From Octopus sinensis (lineage: Eukaryota), in NCBI RefSeq assembly GCF_006345805.1, contig NC_042999.1:68014001-68078000 (forward strand): a stretch of 64,000 nucleotides of DNA, in the 5' to 3' direction. The notes below the pieces were generated by a model. It was not told the origin of the DNA, ran no database searches, and worked only from the letters and a program-made list of their open reading frames with translations. Below are positions 10,761-64,000 of the stretch, in pieces (the first letter of the stretch is position 1; each line of letters begins with the position of its first letter). The translations under genes and the position numbers were made by a program.

Positions 10761-11149
10761 ATTCTTTTCTTTTCAACTCTAGGCACAAGGTCCGAAATTT
10801 TGCGGGAGGAGGCCAGTCGATTAGATCGACCCCAGTACGCAACTGGTACTTAATTTATCGACCCCGAAAGGATGAAATGCAAAGTCGAGCTCAGAACATA
10901 AACTCAGACGAAATACATATTTCTTTACTACCCACAAGGGGCTAAACACAGAAGGGATAAAGAAGGACAGACAAATGGATTAAGTCGATTACATCGACCC
11001 CAGTGCGTAACTGGTGCTTAATTTATCGGTCCCGAAAGGATGAAAGGCAAAGTCGACCTCAGCGGAATTTGAACTCAGAACGTAACGGCAGACGAAATAC
11101 GGCTACTTATTTCGCCGGGCGAGCTAACGTTTCTGCCACCTCGCCACCT
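10761..11149 (-). mobile_element. SINE-A heterodimer (tail-2 copy joined into a tail-1 copy)
   Basis: Two cores with different tails; junction cagacgaaatac|atatttcttt at 10916/10917. Confidence 0.9.
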
Positions 11150-23620: not shown

Positions 23621-23910
23621 TATAAACGAGTGTGTTTTTATGCATGTTTATATATGTGTGTACTTATATAATACATATATACATATATACATAAACATAT
23701 ACTTATATAGATATATACATAAACATATATGGTGTATAAAAATACAATGGTGAGGTAAAAAAAAATCAAACAGACAGGGTGTATCAGATTTACGTTAAGG
23801 AAAATAAGTCACTAATGTCTTCGAACGTATGCTTTCCTACAGAAACGATAGATGAGGAAAAAGAAAAGAAAAAGAAAAAGAAAAGAACATATAATATGTG
23901 TACACACAGA

Positions 23911-24351
23911 AGGCGGCGAACTGGCAGAAACGTTAGCACGCTAGGCGAGATGCTCAGCGGTATTTCGTTTGCCGTTACGTTCTGAGTTCAAATTCCGCCG
24001 TGGTTGACTTTGCCTTTCATCCTTTTGGGGTCGATAAATTAAGTACCAGTTACGCACTGGGGTCGATGTAATCGACTTAATCCCTTTGTCTGTCCTTATT
24101 TGTCCCCACTATGTTTAGTTCCTTGTGGGTAATAAAGAAAAAATAAATAAGAAACATTAGCACGCCGGGCGAAATACTTAGCGGTATTTCGCTTGTCTTT
24201 ACGTTCTGAGTTCAACTTCCGCTGAGGTCGATTTTGCATTTCATCATTTTGGGGTCGATAAATTAAATACCAGTTGCGTAATGGGGTCAATCGAATCGAC
24301 TGGCCCCCTCTCCCAAAAAAATTTCGGATCTTCTGCCTAAAATAGAAAAAT
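23911..24351 (+). mobile_element. SINE-A heterodimer (tail-2 copy followed by a 5'-clipped tail-1 copy)
   Basis: Junction ...aaataa|gaaacattagcacgccggg at ~24150. Confidence 0.9.
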
Positions 24352-38644: not shown

Positions 38645-39435
38645 AAGCGCTGTTCGTACTGCGAGTCTGAATTCGCTGTACGTACTGCATTTTTGAATCC
38701 ATCGTATGTATTACGACTTTGAATCCACTGTAGTAGTTTGTTCCCTTACTAATTGAGTTGTCACGAGCTGCCTCGCTCAGTTGTCGCCAAGTGACTACTT
38801 CGTTAAGTCGTCAGCGGCTGAGGCCAACTGATTTTTGCTTGGGGTGTGCTTGCTTTTATAACTACCCAGAAGGATAGACATATCATTGAGAACAATAGAT
38901 TTAGTTGGTAGTCTTGCTATCTCTATTCTAGCTTTTGGTGAAGTAGAAAAGGTTAGAAAGGGTCAAGTGGTGAAGACGTTATTTCGGCCTAGCTAAAGGC
39001 ATCTGGAAAATCATTGTTCCACCGTGCGAAAAGTTCTGTTGCATGGTTAATTTAAATTTGGCTATGGTGGATCGAATCCACTTCATGCAAGCAAGATTCA
39101 CTACACACTGTATGTGCAGCGAATTTTAATCCACTGCAAGTACTACGAATTTGAATCTATTGTCCGACTTTCGATTCTGAATCCATTGTACGTACTTCGA
39201 GTTGGAATCCATTGTACGTACTCGTGTTTTAATCCTCTGTGCGAACTACGAGTTTCAGTCCATTGCACGTACTGCGAGTTTGAATCCACTGTACGTGCGG
39301 CGAATTTTAATCCACTGTACGTACTTCGGGTTTTAATCCTCTGTGCATACTAGGAGTTTGAATCCATTGTACATACTGCGAGTTAGAATCCACTGTACGT
39401 ACTGCGAGTTTTACGTACTGCGAGTACATACTGTA
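38645..39435. repeat. 26-bp minisatellite (gaatccactgtacgtactgcgagttt) split by a ~340-bp unique insert
   Basis: Units at 38645-38731 and 39075-39435. Confidence 0.85.
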
Positions 39436-42080: not shown

Positions 42081-42335
42081 GTCATCGTCCATCATCATCA
42101 TCATCGTCGTCGTCACCATCTTCAATCATTCAGCCGTCACCATCCTAGCTACCCTTCAACCCCGCCGCCACCATTACCCCCGACATCAACAGCAAACACA
42201 CGTAACACCAGTGTCACCACCAACACCACCAATGCCAACACCATCAATCAACAACAACAAAAGAACACCAACACCACCATACCATCGTCACCCCCACCAC
42301 CACCACCACAACCATCACACCAAGAACAAAATCCT

Positions 42336-42375
42336 ATGAAACACAATCAACATCAGCGTCACCATCACCATCATG
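42336..42375 (+). CDS. Weak candidate first coding exon (MKHNQHQRHHHHH-G, phase-1 donor), possibly with a long low-complexity 5' UTR
   Basis: ATG at 42336 in frame with the open reading 41778-42506, followed by catg|GTAAAT. Upstream 41150-41790 is unique, non-TE sequence. No downstream exon identified. Confidence 0.25.
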
Positions 42376-42533
42376 GTAAATGCATATTTATTGCTTGTTG
42401 CTTCGTCAGAAAAGTCAGTGTTTTGCAATTATGGCTGTGGTTTAGAACAGGAAATAAGGCAGAGCCGTCTTCAGACGTGGGAACGTACTCACACACACAC
42501 ATATGAACCTACACCAAAATATAAACCAAATAC

Positions 42534-43308
42534 CTATTTCTTTACAACCCACGAGGGGCGAAACATAGAGGGGACAAACAAGGACAGACAAACGGATTAA
42601 GTCGATTACATCGACCCCAGTGCGTAACTGGTGCTTAATTTATCGACCCCGAAAAGATGAAAGGCAAAGTCGACCTCACGCGGAATTTGAACTCAGACGT
42701 AACGGCGGACGAAATACCTATTTCTTACTACCCACGAGGGGCTAAACCAGAGAGGACAAACAAGGACAGACAAACGGATTTAGTCGATTACATCGACCCC
42801 AGTGCGTAACTGGTACTTAATTTATCGAACCCAAAAGATGAAAGGCAAAGTCGACCTCGGCGGATTTGGACTCAAACGTAACGGCAGACGAAATACCTGT
42901 TTCTTTACTACCCACGAGGGGCTAACACAGAGAGGACAAACAAGGACAGACGAACGGATTAAGTCGATTACACGACCCAGTGCGTAACTGGTACTTATTT
43001 AATCGACCCCGAAGGATAAAGGCAAAGTCGACCTCGGCGGAATTTGAACTCAGAACGTAACGGCAGACAAAATACCTATTTCTTTACTACCCATGAGGGA
43101 CTAAACACAGAGAGGACAAACAAGGACAGACAAACGGATTAAGTCGATCACATCGACCCCAGTGCGTAACTGGTACTTATTTAATCGACCCCGAAAGGAT
43201 GAAAGGGAAAGTCGACCTCGGCGGAGTTTGAACTCAGAACGTAATGGCAGACGAAATACGGCTACGCATTCCGCCCTGCGTGCCAACGATTCTGCCAGCT
43301 CGCCACCT
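42534..43308 (-). mobile_element. SINE-A tail-2 tetramer (one complete head + three headless units)
   Basis: Unit starts at 42534, 42718, 42897 and 43076; every junction reads aaatac|ct(a/g)tttc. Flanking imperfect TSD tataaaccaaatacc / tataaaacgaaatacc. Confidence 0.95.
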
Positions 43309-44000
43309 TATAAAACGAAATACCAGCGATGTAATGGAACAGGGTATATGGCGACCAGGTTAAAGATATACAAGGAAAGTCTTAGATGATTAATACGAGT
43401 TGTATGTAATATTCAATGTGAAATAAAGCAGAAATGAATATAACGGTGTGTGTGTATTGCACATATATGTGTATGCATTTGTGTGTGTATGTGTGCCTGT
43501 GTCTGGACGTTAGAACATTAGAACATTGCTATTGTTCCAGTTTCAAGATATTTACAGGAGAAATACTATTCCAGTTCATGTACACACACACACACACGCA
43601 CACGCAGAATCATGTGCATCAATGTATGCATGTATGTATGTGTATGTATGTATGTATGTGTGTATGTATATATGTATATGCATATATACATACATACATA
43701 TACATACATATATATTTATATGTTTATGAATATATGCACTCACACATACACGTACACACACACACGCACACACATATACCCATTCAATATATACATGTGT
43801 GTGCGTGTGTATATATGTACGAATGGAAACATATTTATATATGTAAGTATATATATATATATAATATATATATATATAATATGCATATGTCTATATATGT
43901 ATACATACATACATATGTATGTACATACATGTATATACATACATACGTAAGTGTGTGCGTGTGTGTGTGTGTGTGTTTTTGTTATATATTATATCAATAT

Positions 44001-44299: not shown

Positions 44300-44537
44300 A
44301 GTAGAATGTGTTTTGGCGCGGCAGTTTTGGCACAGCCGTTTTGGCGCAGCCGTTTTGGCGCAGCCGTTTTGGCGCAGCCGTTTTGGCGCAGCCGTTTTGG
44401 CGCAGCCGTTTTGGCGCAGCCGTTTTGGCGCAGCCGTTTTGGCGCAGCCGTTTTGGCGCAGCCGTTTTGGCGCAGCCGTTTTGGTGCAGCTGTTTTGGCA
44501 TCGTTGATTCGTCGTTGACTATTTCTCTTGTTCATTC

Positions 44538-45019: not shown

Positions 45020-45440
45020 ATGTTCATGGTGTTCAAGGTGTTTATGGCGTTCATGATGTTTATGGTGTTTATGGTGTTCGTGGTGTTCAAGGTGTTTATG
45101 GTGTTCATGGTGTTCAATGTGTTTATCGTGTTCAAGGTGTTTATGACGTTCATGGTGTTTATGGTGTTTATGGCGTTCAAGGTGTTTATGGTGTTCATGG
45201 TGTTTATGGCGTTCATGGTACTCATGGTGTCCAATGCGTTTATGGTGTTCAAGGTGTTTATGGTGTTCATGATGTTTATAGTGTTCATGGTGTTCGTGGC
45301 GTTCAAAGGGTTCAAGGTGTTTGTGGTGTTCAGGTGTTCATGGTGTTCATGGTGTTCATGGTGTTCATGGTGTTCATGGTGTTTATGGTGTCTATGATGT
45401 TCATGGTGTTCAATGCGTTTATGGTGTTCATTGTGTTCAA
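45020..45440. repeat. 9-bp minisatellite (atggtgttc / atggtgttt / aaggtgttt)
   Basis: Directly visible. Confidence 0.95.
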
Positions 45441-49679: not shown

Positions 49680-50070
49680 TAGCACAAGGCGCGCGGGAGG
49701 AGGTAAATCAAATACATCAATCCAAGTGATCAGCTGGTACTTATATTATTGACCCCGAAAGGAAGAAAGGCAAAGTGAACCACGGCTGAATTTGAACTCA
49801 GAACATAAAGATGGACGAAATGCCGTTAAGTATTTTGCCTGGCGTGCTAACGATTCTTTTCTACTATTGGCACAAGGCCCGAAATTTTGGGGGAGGGGGC
49901 CAGTCGAATAGCTCGACCCCAGTACGAAACTGGTACTTAGTTTATCGACTGCGAAAGGAAGAAAGGTAAAGTCGACCTCGGCGGAATTTGAACTCAGAGC
50001 GTAAACAGGGGGTGAAATACTGCTGAGCATTTTGCCCGGCGTGCTTAACGATTCTGCAAATTCGCTGCCT
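49680..50070 (-). mobile_element. SINE-A dimer (tail-1 copy joined into an older copy's head)
   Basis: Junction gctaacg-attct-tttctac at 49853-49857; attct is shared by tail and head. Confidence 0.88.
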
Positions 50071-50229
50071 TAACAACAACAATGGTTTCAATTTTTGGCC
50101 CAAGGCCGGTAATTTCAAGTGAGTGGGATAAGTCGATTACTTCGATCCTCGAGTTCAACTCATACTTATTTTATCTCTCGCAAAAGGATAGAAAGCTAAT
50201 ATCCTTCCCTTTTGTGTTGCAATTCCATA

Positions 50230-50884
50230 CAGTAAGCCCTAGCCATATCGCGATTCACCTATCGTGCACTAAGTAGATCGCGGTTCACCTATCGCGCACT
50301 CAGTACATCGCGGTTCACCTATCGCGCACTCAGTGCATCACGATTCACCTATCGCGCACTCAGTGCATCGCGATTCCCCTATCGCACTCTCAGTACATCG
50401 CGGTTCACCTATCGCGCACTCAGTCCATCGAGATTCACCTATTGCGCACTCAGTACATCACGGTTCACTCGTCGTGCACTCAGTACATCACGGTTCACCT
50501 GTCGTGCATTCAGTACATCGCGGTTCACCCATCGCGCTTTCAGTACATAGCAGTTCACCTACCGCGCACTCAGTACATCGCGGTTCACCTCTCGTGCACT
50601 CAGTACATTGCGATTCACCTACCGCGCACCCAGTACATTGCGGTTCACCTGTTGCGCACTCAGTACATCGCGGTTCACTTATCACGCACTCAGCACATAG
50701 CGGTTCACTTATCACGCACTCAGTACATCGCGCATTTTTCTGGCTAATATATGTAAATTCATATCGCGGACTCCCAAGTATATCCGGGTTTCTGCGGCCG
50801 AGAGATATTTCTATGGTTTTAGATTTTAATTATTTGTGTGGGAGGTTTTAGAACGTAACACCCGCGATAGACGAAGGATTACTG
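50230..50884. mobile_element. pogo/Tigger-like MITE containing a 30-bp minisatellite (cagtacatcgcggttcacctatcgcgcact, ~50245-50732)
   Basis: TA|cagtaagccctagccatatcgcg ... cgcgatagacgaaggattactg|TA. Confidence 0.8.
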
Positions 50885-59329: not shown

Positions 59330-60190
59330 TGTGTTGAGTCAAAAGTTTTGTAATATTTTGCTAACCTATTTGTTTTATTCGTCAAGTCACAACAGAAACA
59401 GCCTAGCATTCAAAGTAGAGGCCATCGTGTTGCGCCGTCTGAAACCACCTTTCTACCAGTTTTTATTTATTTATTTATTTTTATACCACGCTGATGTCAG
59501 TTATTGCCCTTCGAAGAGAATAATAACTCCTTCATTGAAGCGTCCACCTCCACTTGGTTGATGAAGAGTTGCGAGTTCAGGAAGGGAACCATGGTTCGGA
59601 AAAGTAATAATCGAAGGGAGCTAGGTCCAGACTATATAGCGGTTGCGGCATCAGTTCGATTCCCTCACGTACCTTGAGTTTGTTCCGGGTCGTTCGAGCA
59701 GTATGAGGTCTAGTGTTGTCTTACTGCAGAAGAGCTCACTTTTCGTTAACAAATGCCGGGTATTTTTGCCGCAAAATGGCATACAACCGTGCCATGCTTT
59801 GCTTGCCTGATACTTTCTGAGTGCTACTCGCAGGATTTGCTTTTATAGCTTAGAATACGGCTTCGAAATCCATGGTTTCAGGTTTCCATGTTTGAGATTC
59901 TTCCGACTCGAGCAAAATTTCTCGTTTCATTTGATTTCTGTATCTAATCAACGTTTGCACAACAAATGTTTTTGCTTGCTTCCGTGGCGATGTGGTTCAG
60001 TTCAAACACGTAAAGTATAAGTTCCTGAATTATATTGCGTTGCACGTTCGTTTGCGCAGCTTTCAAAACACATACGGAGTGTAGTATTGTACACCATGTC
60101 TGCGCACCAATTACTGCGATACTACCAACCTCAACGGGTTCCTTCCGCGTCTTCAACTGCTTCAACCACGTGATGTACATAACGCAAATT
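59330..60190 (-). mobile_element. Decayed mariner transposon
   Basis: ELILYVFELNHIATEASKNICCA (HTH-like N-terminus); LLQ*DNTRPHTA...PQPLYSLDLAPFDYYF (HDNA / YSPDLAP motifs). Confidence 0.82.
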
Positions 60191-60559
60191 AGCACGAATG
60201 CAAATATTGCAAACGTTTTTACTCAGCTCAGTATATCATCATCGTATGGACGTTAACGGGCGATGATTATGCATACATACATACATACTGCTATACATAC
60301 ATGCATACATACATACATACATACATACATACATACATACATACATACATACATACATACATACATACATACATACATACATACATACATGCATGCATGC
60401 ATACATACATACATACATACATACTACATACATACATACATACATACATACACACACACACTCATACATATATACATATATATTTATATACAAGTGTATG
60501 TATGAGTATACTTGTGTGTGTAATGTGTATGAAAGTATTTATGTATCTATACATATATA

Positions 60560-60790
60560 TCTATATATATAAAACTGAGAATGTGTGTCTGTCTATCTGT
60601 CTCTCTGTGTGAATCCCTAAAACTTGAGAACTACACAACCAATTTTACACATGCCTTACTTAGGACCCGGGGAGTGTCATGGGTAAAAGAAATTTTTAAC
60701 TTCTTGCCTAGGGCGAGCCCACAGCAATATCACATCTCCACTATTTCAGTGTTAAAAGTGAAACAAAAGCATCTCTCTATTGTCTGTACA
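60560..60790 (+). mobile_element. Helitron-like family C 5' module
   Basis: a|TCtatatatataaaactgagaatgtgtgtctgtc; homologous to 18855-19103. No 3' CTAG end found in the window. Confidence 0.7.
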
Positions 60791-62775
60791 TGACTGGCTG
60801 GCCCAGTTTTGAATACCTGGCTGGCTCAGCCTTGGCTTGCTGGCTGGAAACTTGCCTAGGCTAGCTGGCTGGCCAGTCCTGGCTGCCTGACGGGCCCGGC
60901 CTTGGCTTGCTGGCTGGCTGGCTGGCCGGTTTGGGCTACCTGGCTGGCCCGGCCTTGGCTTGCTGGCTGGCCCGGCCTTGGCTTGCTGGCTGGCCTGGCA
61001 CTGGCTGGCTGGCTGGGCCGCTTTTGGATACCTGGCTGGCCCGGCCATTGTTGCTGGCTGAAACTGGCCAAGGCTGGCTGGCTGGACCTGTTTTGGATAC
61101 CTTGCAGGTCCCGGATTGGCTTGTTGGCTGGAAACATGCTTACGCTGGCTAGCTGGCCGGTTCTTGGCTGCCTGGCTGCCTGGCTGGCCCGGCCTTGGCT
61201 TGCTGGCTGGCCTGGACTTGGCTAGCTGGCTGGCTGGCCCGGCCTTGGCTTGCTAGCTCGAAACTAGACTAGGCTCTGGCTGGCCCTGTTTTTGATACCT
61301 GGCTTGGTTTGCTGGCTGGAAATTTGCCTAGGCTGGCTGGCTGGCCGGTTCTTGGCTGCCTGGCTGCCCCGTCCTTGGCTTGCTGGCTGGCGTGGCCTTG
61401 GCTTGCTGGCTGGACAGGTGTGGCTGCCAGGCTGGCCCGGCCTTGGCTTGCTGGCTGGAAACATAGCTAGGCTGGCTGGCTAGTCTTGTTTTGGATACCT
61501 GGCTGGTCCTGGACTTGGCTTGCAGCCTGGAAACTTGTCTAGGCTGGCTGGCTGGCCGGTTCTTCGCTGCCTGGCCGGTTCTTCGCTGCCTGGCTGGCCC
61601 GGCCTTGGCTTGCTGACTTGCCTGGCCTTGGCTAGCTGGCAGACCCGCTTTGGATAGCTGGCTGCACGGCCATGGCTTGCTGGCTGGAAACGGGCCTAGG
61701 CTGGCTGGCTGGCTGGCTGGCTGGCCCTGTTGGGACACCTGGCTGGTCCTGAGCTTGGTTTGCTTGCTGGAAACATGCCTAGGCTGGCTGGCTGGCAGGT
61801 TCTTGGCTACCTGGCTGGCCCGTCCTTGGCTTGCTGGCTGGCGTAACCTTGGCTAGCTGGCTGGCCCTATTTTGGATACCTGGCTGGTCTGGGCCTTGAC
61901 CTGCTGGCTGCAAACTCGCCTAGACTGCCTGGGTGGCCCGAATTTGAATACCTGGCTGGTCCTGGGCTTGGCTTACTGGCTGGTCGGTTCTTGGCTGACT
62001 TGGCTTCCTGCATGGCCTGGGCTTGGCTGGCTGGTTGGCACGGTTTGGATATCTTGCTGGCTCGATCTTAGCTTGCTGGTAGAAATCTATCCTAGGCTGG
62101 CTGGCCTGGCTAGCTGTCTGACCCGCTTTGGATTCCTGGCTGGCCCGGCCTTGGCTTGCTGGCTGACTAGCTGGCCGGGACTTGGCTGCCTAGTTGGTCA
62201 TGGGCTTGGTTTGCTGACTGGAAACTTGCCTAGGCTGGCTACCTGACTGGTCCGGACTTGGCTTGCTGGCTGGCCTGGACTTGGCTGGCTTACCCATCCG
62301 GTTTGGATACCTGGCTTGCCCGGTCTTTGCTTACTGGCAGGAAACTTGCCAAGCTTGGGTGGCTGGCTGGCTGGCCGGTTCTTGTCTGCCTGCTGGCCCG
62401 GCCTTGGCTTGCTGGCTGGCCTGGCATTGGCTGGCTGGCTTGGTTTGGATACCTGGCTTGCTGGCCTTGCCTTGCTTGCTGGAAACTGGCCTAGGCTGTC
62501 TGACTTGCCCAGTTTCAGATACCTGGCTGCTCCTGGACTTGGCTTGCTGGCTGGAAACTTGACTAGGAAGGCTGGCTAGCCGGTTTGGGCTGCATGGCTG
62601 GCCCAGCCTTGGCTTGCTGGCTGGAAACTGGCCTAGGCTGTCTGACTGCACATATTTGGACACCTGGCTTTCCTGGGCTCGGTTTGCTTGCTGGAAACTT
62701 GCCTGGAGGAGGGGGCTGTTCTTGGCCTGGCCTTGGTTGGCTAGCTGACTCGGTTTGGATACCTGGCTGGCTGGC
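60791..62775. repeat. GC-rich (GGCT)-based satellite with ~70/140-bp higher-order units
   Basis: Recurrent landmarks tttggatacctggctgg, cccggccttggcttgctgg and ggaaact.gcctagg. Confidence 0.9.
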
Positions 62776-63823
62776 TGGATAGATGGATGGATGTATGTAT
62801 GGATGGATTGATGGACGGATGAAATTCTCCTGAGTCACGATCATCGAGCTTCTGTTGTTAGGTTCGATGTGTATACGTGTGTGTGCATGTATATGTATGT
62901 ATGTATTTATGGATGTATGGATGGATGGATGTATGTATGTATGTATGAATGGATGGATGGATGAATGGATGGATGGAATTCTCCTGAGCGGCGATCATCG
63001 AGCTTCTGTTGTTAGGTTCGACGTGTATTCGTGTGTGTGCATGTATATGTATGTATGGATGGATGGAAGGATGGAGGGATGCATGGATGGATGGATGGAT
63101 GCATGGACGCATGAATGGATGGATGCATGGATGGATGGATGGGATGGATGAAATTCTCCTGAGCGGCAATCATCGAGCTTCTGTTGTTAGGTTCGGTGTG
63201 TATACGCGTGTGTGCATGTATATGTATGTATATAAATATGTATGTATGTATTTATGTATGTATGTATGTGTGCATGTTTGTATGTATGTATGTATGAATG
63301 GATGGATGGATCGATGGATCGATGAAATTCTCCAGGGCGGCGATCATCGAGCTTCACTTGTTAGGTTCGATGTGTATACGTATGTGTGCATATTTGTATG
63401 TATGTATGTATGTATGTATGTATGAATGGATGGATGGATGGATGGATGGATGGATGGACGAATACATGGATGGAAGGATGGAAGAATGGATGTGTGAATT
63501 CCTCCTGAGCGGTGATCATCGAGCCTCTGTTGTTAGGTTCGATGTGAATATGTGTGTGTGTGCATGTATCCAGGTTCTGTTGTTACGTTCGATGTGTATA
63601 CGTGTGTGTTCATGTATATGTATGTATGTATGTATGTATGGATGGATGGATGGATGGATGGAGGAAATTCTCCTGAGTGGCGATCATCGAGCTTCTGTTG
63701 TTAGGTTCGGTGTGTATACATGTGTATGCATCTGTATGTATATATGTATGTATGTATAGTTGTATGTATGTATGTATGCATGGTTGTATGTATGGATGGA
63801 TGGATGGATGGATGGATGGATGG
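62776..63823. repeat. ~155-175-bp satellite: conserved core + variable (TATG)n(GATG)n
   Basis: Core aattctcctgagcggcgatcatcgagcttctgttgttaggttcgatgtgtatacg at ~62822, 62977, 63151, 63325, 63497 and 63666, plus a partial at ~63575. Confidence 0.92.
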
Positions 63824-64000
63824 TGGAAACTGGCCTAGGCTGGCTAACTAGCTGGCCCTATTTTGGATACCTGACTGGCTGTCTAGCACGGTTAGGATAC
63901 CTGGCTGGCTGGAAACTGGCCTGGGGTTGCTGGCTGGCCCGGCCTTGGCTTGCTGGCTGGAAACTGGCCTAGGCTTCCTAGCTAGCCCGATTTTGGATAC
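63824..64000. repeat. (GGCT)-based satellite resumes, runs off the window end
   Basis: ggaaactggcctaggctggct...ttttggatac. Confidence 0.9.

Follow-up and report, generated by a model that had tools for sequence, protein, structure and literature searches.

The four-unit array and its SINE family

The window analysed here is a 64,000-nucleotide stretch of the Octopus sinensis genome (contig NC_042999.1, positions 68,014,001 to 68,078,000 of the forward strand) that contains an array of four SINE units (Table 1), which TRF reports with a period of 182, 4.0 copies and a score of 1185. Positions within the SINE are numbered (q) on a 233-nt column-majority reference made from 103 full copies. The preliminary description of this locus had seen head-to-tail units with a head on the first alone and one internal starting point for the others, and this was borne out, since units 2-4 each start at q50 (GGTATTT). 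It had also remarked that the genomic flank mimics the internal junction; the pre-insertion site of the array does equal the SINE q50 site at 10/10 bases, but the repeated flank is really a 15-bp target-site duplication that brackets the whole array. In the head of unit 1, at 43297-43287, is a word that we take to be A-box-like, an imperfect match to the consensus. The G45/C50 head variant (window 43265 and 43260), which is confined to T2 copies and occurs at many loci, abolishes the GGTA word.

Table 1. Positions of the array, its parts and two further composite insertions in the window
Feature	Position	Strand	Remarks
5' target-site duplication	43324-43310	-	GGTATTTCGTTTTAT; genomic look-alike of the SINE q50 site
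Whole array	42535-43309	-	four SINE units of 233, 179, 179 and 184 bp
Unit 1	43309-43077	-	full SINE, 233 bp; head, body and tail type T2; G45/C50 head variant
Head, q1-49	43261-43309	-	single occurrence in the array; contains the q17 AGAA site
q50-65	43245-43260	-	16-nt window; LINE-D insertion point in other copies of the SINE
Tail T2 of unit 1, q172-233	43077-43138	-	resembles L1/Tx1-type LINEs at their 3' ends; lacks poly(A), with fixed end AAAGAAATA
Unit 2	43076-42898	-	headless; starts at q50; 179 bp; several single-base gaps
Unit 3	42897-42719	-	headless; starts at q50; 179 bp; several single-base gaps
Unit 4	42718-42535	-	headless; starts at q50; 184 bp; adjoins the 3' target duplication
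3' target-site duplication	42534-42520	-	GGTATTTGGTTTATA
Second composite	23910-24301	+	joint of a T2 unit with a T3-tailed unit at q17
Third composite	10815-11149	-	joint of a T2 unit with a T3-tailed unit near q50

T3-tailed units also join heads near q17-21 through a common AGAAT, at about 49714-50072 of the window (minus strand) and at locus L086. Also found in the window were minisatellites of 26, 14, 9 and 30 bp (39106-39411, 44310-44499, 45021-45439 and 50247-50732) and a GC-rich final 4 kb (60001-64000).

The 233-nt unit is a SINE, being short, dispersed and of high copy number: exact T2 tail ends number at least 124,457 in the 2.72 Gb of genome searched (92,685 with T and 31,772 with C at q221). 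T2 is the young tail type, and T1, T3 and T3b are older. Target-site duplications of the TPRT type, beginning exactly at the fixed tail end, were found at 64/109 flank ends, 15 being the commonest length. The head and central part presumably resemble those of a tRNA-derived SINE of octopus that has a Meta-like core, and tRNA-derived SINEs named OK, OR1 and OR2 were reportedly described from octopus by Ohshima and Okada in 1994. ARAGORN predicted no tRNA gene and Rfam gave no tRNA match in the SINE region; strict A and B box patterns did not match the SINE, in which box-like words can be picked out only by eye. No ribozyme, such as each unit of a retrozyme would carry, and no other RNA family was matched in 42300-43500 at E values up to 10, folding of the tails gave no common strong structure, and the T2 majority sequence has no T run longer than 3. 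With tandem partial units and a longer terminal unit, the arrays have the form of SINE-derived satellites (sSat), with a homogeneity that is partial and rises with array length. In its available text, PMC13282606 places L1-Tx1 among the recently active octopus LINEs and leaves most SINE families unclassified, and a MetaSINE superfamily is treated in PMC4824008.

The division of the four units into two variants, two and two, is real, with T127/A130 carried by units 1-2. That the units are therefore not one clonal amplification, as had been proposed, holds only in part, since the q127 and q130 variants are common genome-wide (98/230 and 100/230) and all four units carry a rare C at q215 that was found in only 4/334 other tails. 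Substitutions between units amount to 5-9%, against 9.8% in random pairs, and alleles are nested in XXYY and XXXY patterns, those at 127/130 marking units 1-2 and that at 197 marking units 1-3. The array is partly clonal; because all four units have C215, independent insertions alone do not explain it. From the shared and nested alleles we infer that the founder landed on a genomic look-alike of q50, with growth via related templates or local unequal exchange. The single-base gaps of units 2-3 may be read errors. Independent contigs cross the tail-side flank (runs X1, X3 and X7) and the head-side flank (X3 and X7); none among the runs examined spans the entire array, the count of four units resting on the assembly, and run X14, which has no cover at 43329-43414, is uninformative either way. 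An assembly artefact is ruled out for the junction, which has 24,240 copies; the bridged flanks rule it out for the SINE's presence at this locus also.

Joints and serial insertion across the genome

The number of copies just given is that of exact genome-wide matches to a 24-mer across the tail-to-q50 joint, for which the reversed control had 0, and the joint is not chance. SINE-in-SINE joints cluster at two head sites, q50 (GGTA) and q17 (AGAA), so the single invariant junction of the preliminary description stands for the window array and becomes a pair of sites genome-wide. An unbiased sample of 1.06 Mb (the window and 100 stretches of 10 kb at even spacing) contained 71 T2 ends, of which 17 join q50 (three in the window array, one with mismatches) and four join q17 (one with a 7-nt spacer), while 50, or about 70%, lie outside both sites; tabulated in this way, the joints are not scattered. 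In the same sample, window array included, q50 sites make up 47 of the 5,565 GGTA words, yet they receive 14 of the 28 T2 ends followed by GGTA, so that the four-base motif alone does not explain q50 joints. T2 copies outside the head sites sit at looser genomic look-alikes (GGTA, AGAA, TATA) with duplications of about 15 bp. The bases following 117 other T2 ends from wider sampled material were GGTA in 34, TATA in 18 and AGAA in 16, genomic targets often having the motif that the preliminary description named as the priming site, and base +5 after GGT is often T at T2 targets. At some q50 joints (L005, L014, L016) a 6-nt repeat of the tail end precedes GGTA, which suggests priming slippage.

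The best single tail predictor of the sequence that follows is q221, with GGTA behind 56,499 of 92,685 T221 tails (61%) and 3,755 of 31,772 C221 tails (12%). C221 copies are older than T221 copies (0.043 vs 0.027) and favour q17/AGAA. None of the 130 q50 junctions listed begins with C, these having been ascertained mostly on G.

Serial insertion of the SINE into existing copies is shown by old heads with a duplicated target, by antisense insertions and by older last units, which bears out the earlier proposal that new copies stack into old ones at the GGTAT of the head. A pattern of old head, duplication and new head has 161 matches genome-wide, and the 30 read represent 26 distinct loci, 12 with an old head upstream, eight with a tail upstream and six with neither, several of the last showing a decayed head by eye. 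The tail-upstream cases are mostly insertions at an existing internal joint, so chains can grow there. At the antisense GGTA site, which has 440 matches, 19 of the 30 read have a split target upstream. The last unit is more diverged than the first in 19/23 T3-ended arrays and in 6/7 other-ended arrays, T2-ended arrays showing no age gradient (16 vs 13 of 33, p=0.14), and the T3 last units are non-clonal (mean pairwise divergence 0.154; 0.4% of pairs below 0.06). Seamless joints far outnumber non-seamless ones, and sense joints exceed antisense joints at least 55-fold.

The head of an array is usually the newcomer's and not the old copy's. Heads of old-ended arrays are young (divergence 0.043 vs 0.073 for T3 and 0.124 for T1), the G45 variant is present in 8/23 of them and in 0/81 solo T1/T3/T3b heads, and the T63/T65 alleles of the old unit are kept in only 3/11 arrays. 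These observations rule out that the old head is always kept, and with it most of the earlier idea that the old A-box is reused. Alleles common to first and last units at q58-66 are modestly enriched (23/77 vs 17% shuffled). Five-copy tandem runs of a 65-66-bp unit of head plus duplication alone were also seen (G000:C1:195358960-195359246 and G000:C7:15322789-15323080).

When adjacent units are compared for subfamily, T2 units are found joined to older T1/T3 units, as serial insertion predicts, but adjacent units also have rare alleles in common above the random level (dimers 5/20, trimers 14/26, longer arrays 14/32; random pairs 8.8%). Arrays in general are seeded by insertion and partly expanded by duplication, and unequal crossover, an alternative in the preliminary description, is thus retained for part of the expansion but not for the origin, given the fixed q50 and q17 joints. 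One duplication flanks the whole array in 15/30 non-T2-ended arrays, as it does in the window. Counts by array length are lower bounds, because missed tail ends split a few of the long arrays. Ten successive joints spaced about 185 bp apart, all with an identical C221 tail word (G000:C1:30020862-30022550), are probably a clonal expansion.

LINEs with ends inside the SINE

Tail-only matches to protein-coding repeats with similar 3' ends identified a partner clan of LINEs. LINE-D, with 478 first-look candidates of which the best 40 are at 99-100%, has its 3' end followed by SINE q50 in 30/30 loci read (one with a short extra duplication), the first bases of the SINE being GGTA in 20 and CGTA in 10. 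LINE-D ends differ by 0.03% and the SINE bodies behind them by 13%, so these insertions are independent hits; as the same base is hit in every copy checked, an enzyme of this family likely cuts there. In 23/23 full-length copies the SINE head, q1-65, lies directly upstream with the 5' junction at q65, and LINE-D thereby has the sequence-specific insertion that is a trait of the Tx1 clade. The q50 allele is equal on both sides of LINE-D in 23/23 copies while the 16-mer is identical in only 4/23, and three upstream variants recur at LINE-D 5' ends (9, 9 and 3), which together point to a short SINE-derived leader on LINE-D RNA that would be joined by homology. A variant with C50 is no refuge from LINE-D, which hits such heads, and C50 as an escape variant was dropped, the difference between solo copies (23:30) and array heads (13:39) being non-significant (p=0.064).

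The full LINE-D is about 5.35 kb and encodes an ORF1 with a zinc knuckle (CCHC). Three copies were translated, and one of them has an open ORF2 of 1134 aa, which is 73% identical to LINE-B. The 1132-aa ORF2 of LINE-B has the Pfam domains APE, RVT_1 and zf-RVT and a reverse transcriptase that is nearest to LINE-1 ORF2 (E 4e-46, against about 1e-24 for R2). A zinc-knuckle ORF1 and an ORF2 with APE and an L1-type reverse transcriptase make LINE-D and LINE-B L1/Tx1-type LINEs, Tx1 being a putative placement; no named Tx1 protein was among the homologue, cluster and atlas matches, and these supplied no clade name. The T2 tail matches the LINE-D 3' end at 37/48 columns and is similar to that of LINE-B too, without being identical. 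Dong/R4 and RTE elements were dropped as partners of T2 on finding the L1/Tx1-type tails, and a Penelope-like pseudo-LTR reading of family B was rejected since its repeats are stacked ORF1-only units.

Family E, an older relative with ORF1 only, has the SINE behind it in 11 of the 14 loci read (from 43 matches), ten times at q17-19; family E and LINE-D have the two non-SINE tails of the clan that end inside the SINE. Elements more distantly related to family E (L332-L334) have their ends at another common target, not at this SINE. A single ACATGGAGGAAA target holds head-to-tail stacks of LINE-B and several ORF1-only (half-LINE-like) families, with as many as four elements in a row; every element has a fixed 3' end that lacks poly(A) (L211-L230, for example L214:2607-9798). 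Other clan tails terminate in microsatellites, for instance (TATC)n, (CA)n, (TC)n and (ATT)n (L096:8650, L089, L048:7724, L140, L004, L172).

LINE-D has a GGCA tail and lands on q50, and LINE-B has a GGTAAT tail and lands on ACATG, a mismatch which indicates that the site follows the mobilising LINE family. The preliminary description had the RNA end of the T2 tail selecting the site, and the comparison does not support this as the main cause.

Mechanism and relation to known systems

The reading we favour, and hold to be probable from these sequence comparisons, is that an L1/Tx1-type LINE clan inserts at q50 and q17 of the SINE head, and that T2, with its similar tail, is mobilised by clan enzymes into its own copies, building chains. 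Clan endonucleases would nick just before q50 or q17, and T2 RNA would be recognised via its LINE-like tail, with reverse transcription beginning at the fixed tail end. The incoming cDNA may pair with the homologous head upstream, or two 65-bp heads may collapse later, leaving a single head that would usually be the newcomer's. Every joint would recreate the target site and allow the chain to grow, and longer chains, the window tetramer included, were likely extended by local duplication, unequal exchange or reuse of related templates. Several features tell against this reading. The clan search found no LINE with a T2-identical tail; LINE-D has a different tail end, is far younger and is stricter, and it hits C50 heads in 10/30 loci whereas 0/130 of the T2 q50 joints listed, ascertained mostly on G, have C. 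The many T2 ends outside both head sites, the missing age gradient of T2-ended arrays and the rare allele common to all four window units count against it as well. Because LINE-D is far younger than the T2 copies, most of these were likely mobilised by an older relative of it.

The insertion site is likely set by the LINE endonuclease and not by the end of the SINE RNA. The opposing idea, that the SINE RNA picks the site through read-through bases (GGTAT) after the tail that pair with the nicked target and prime, the preference being inherited in cis, draws on the predictive power of q221, on the fixed end without poly(A) and on the frequent T at +5. The greater age of C221 copies lets a change of partner over time explain the q221 link, and LINE-D with its GGCA tail is still at q50 while LINE-B, with GGTA in its tail, is at ACATG; we consider site choice by the SINE RNA unlikely. 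That the GGTA inside the tail pairs directly with the primer is rejected, as 0/38 flanks of GGCA tails start with GGCA, a count that weighs on the read-through version also. The link between q221 and target fits a change of partner LINE over time, and a cis effect via read-through pairing may aid precision. Copying of most joints en bloc from a few multimeric master loci, with Pol III reading straight through, would sit well with a T2 majority lacking T runs above 3, with single duplications around whole arrays and with the excess of sense joints, but it needs joints that pre-exist, and first and last units differ in age while T3 last units are non-clonal; en-bloc copying probably just adds copies, and as the main source of joints it is very unlikely.

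An origin purely at the DNA level, by unequal crossover, slippage or gene conversion as proposed for the squamate SINE-derived satellites, would account for the rare alleles of adjacent units and for C215 and the nested patterns in the window. Under crossover, however, nothing would place the joints at exactly q50 and q17, join T2 to old T1/T3-tailed copies, produce antisense insertions with duplications or bring LINEs to the same bases, and we find so pure a version highly improbable; DNA-level processes are likely a second step and not the origin of arrays. Rolling or iterative reverse transcription, with a circular or precisely cut RNA as template, could also yield the fixed joint and the partial clonality of some arrays in a single event, as could end-to-end template jumping. 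Copying of a circular RNA, which the preliminary description had entertained, is not needed, the region matches no ribozyme or RNA family, and mixed tail types and ages within one array and targets split at the DNA level leave such an event with almost no probability. A broader version of the favoured mechanism is a three-tier parasite loop, in which successive site-specific LINEs entered the SINE promoter region (q17, then q50) and used a SINE leader for 5' joining, the SINE captured a tail of the parasite clan and became self-polymerising and satellite-seeding, and C50 escaped the older mobiliser until LINE-D adapted; we put this forward tentatively, as a scenario more doubtful than not.

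R2 elements have co-transcripts with homologous 5' joining, and R1 and SART elements show read-through pairing. LINE-D is like R2 in that target-derived sequence at the RNA 5' end appears to make the 5' junction, and unlike R2 and R1/SART in clade and endonuclease, their target being rDNA or a telomere repeat. Co-transcription is also mentioned in PMC4494074. The closest known system is that of crocodilian Tx1-Mar and SINEU-3 targeting Mariner-N4: Tx1-Mar LINEs and SINEU-1/2/3 have common sites in Mariner-N4, and SINEU-3 tandems arose by sequential insertion (Kojima 2015, PMC4494074). Mariner-N4 has two hot spots, used by different LINE families, with a SINE preference of 13-23% vs 90% (PMC4494074). 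As the available text of that paper has it, both systems combine Tx1-type LINEs with SINEs likely moved by them, a fixed target inside a repeat, two hot spots, a weaker preference in the SINEs and tandems from sequential insertion. They differ in that the SINEU target is a DNA transposon and the octopus SINE targets its own head, in that SINEU has poly(A) and no common 3' end with a LINE is reported in that text whereas the octopus tail is common to the LINE clan, and in that SINEU-3 tandems are whole units sandwiching a duplication whereas octopus joints are headless and seamless. The narrow-target LINEs listed in the same text, Xenopus Tx1L (in Tx1D), Keno (U2) and Kibi and Koshi (microsatellites), are likewise L1-related with APE, and the octopus clan also has microsatellite- and repeat-ending members, but no SINE is among the targets listed there (PMC4494074).

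For SINE-derived satellites of squamates and Dip multimers of the jerboa, mainly unequal recombination has been invoked (Vassetzky et al. 2023, PMC10702118). Squamate sSat resemble the octopus arrays in their tandem partial SINE units, one longer terminal unit, 150-180-bp scale and greater uniformity with length, but no site-specific LINE figures in the available text, whereas octopus joints coincide with LINE insertions; Dip multimers differ in having full-length units (PMC10702118). The octopus arrays are spread over tens of thousands of loci. No SINE-specific LINE or self-targeting SINE was found in the literature searched, including the available text of PMC8967140, PMC4758252, PMC3531059 and PMC3747384; subscription papers, Repbase, Dfam and supplements may hold a record.

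The self-joining chains are real and genome-wide, and as judged from sequence they are best explained by a SINE-targeting LINE clan whose type of tail is carried by the SINE. LINE-D is very young, an open ORF2 of 1134 aa is present in at least one copy, and its 16-nt target occurs very many times, so that the specificity of the endonuclease, homology-based 5' joining and trans-mobilisation of the SINE lend themselves to direct assay. In such genomes a single repeat family may come to be annotated as many chimeric "families". Known targets of Tx1-type LINEs are RNA genes, microsatellites and DNA transposons, and a single base of a SINE would, on the literature searched, be a new one. How dispersed SINEs turn into tandem arrays, an issue that the squamate satellite paper does not settle in its available text (PMC10702118), would have a concrete and testable answer.
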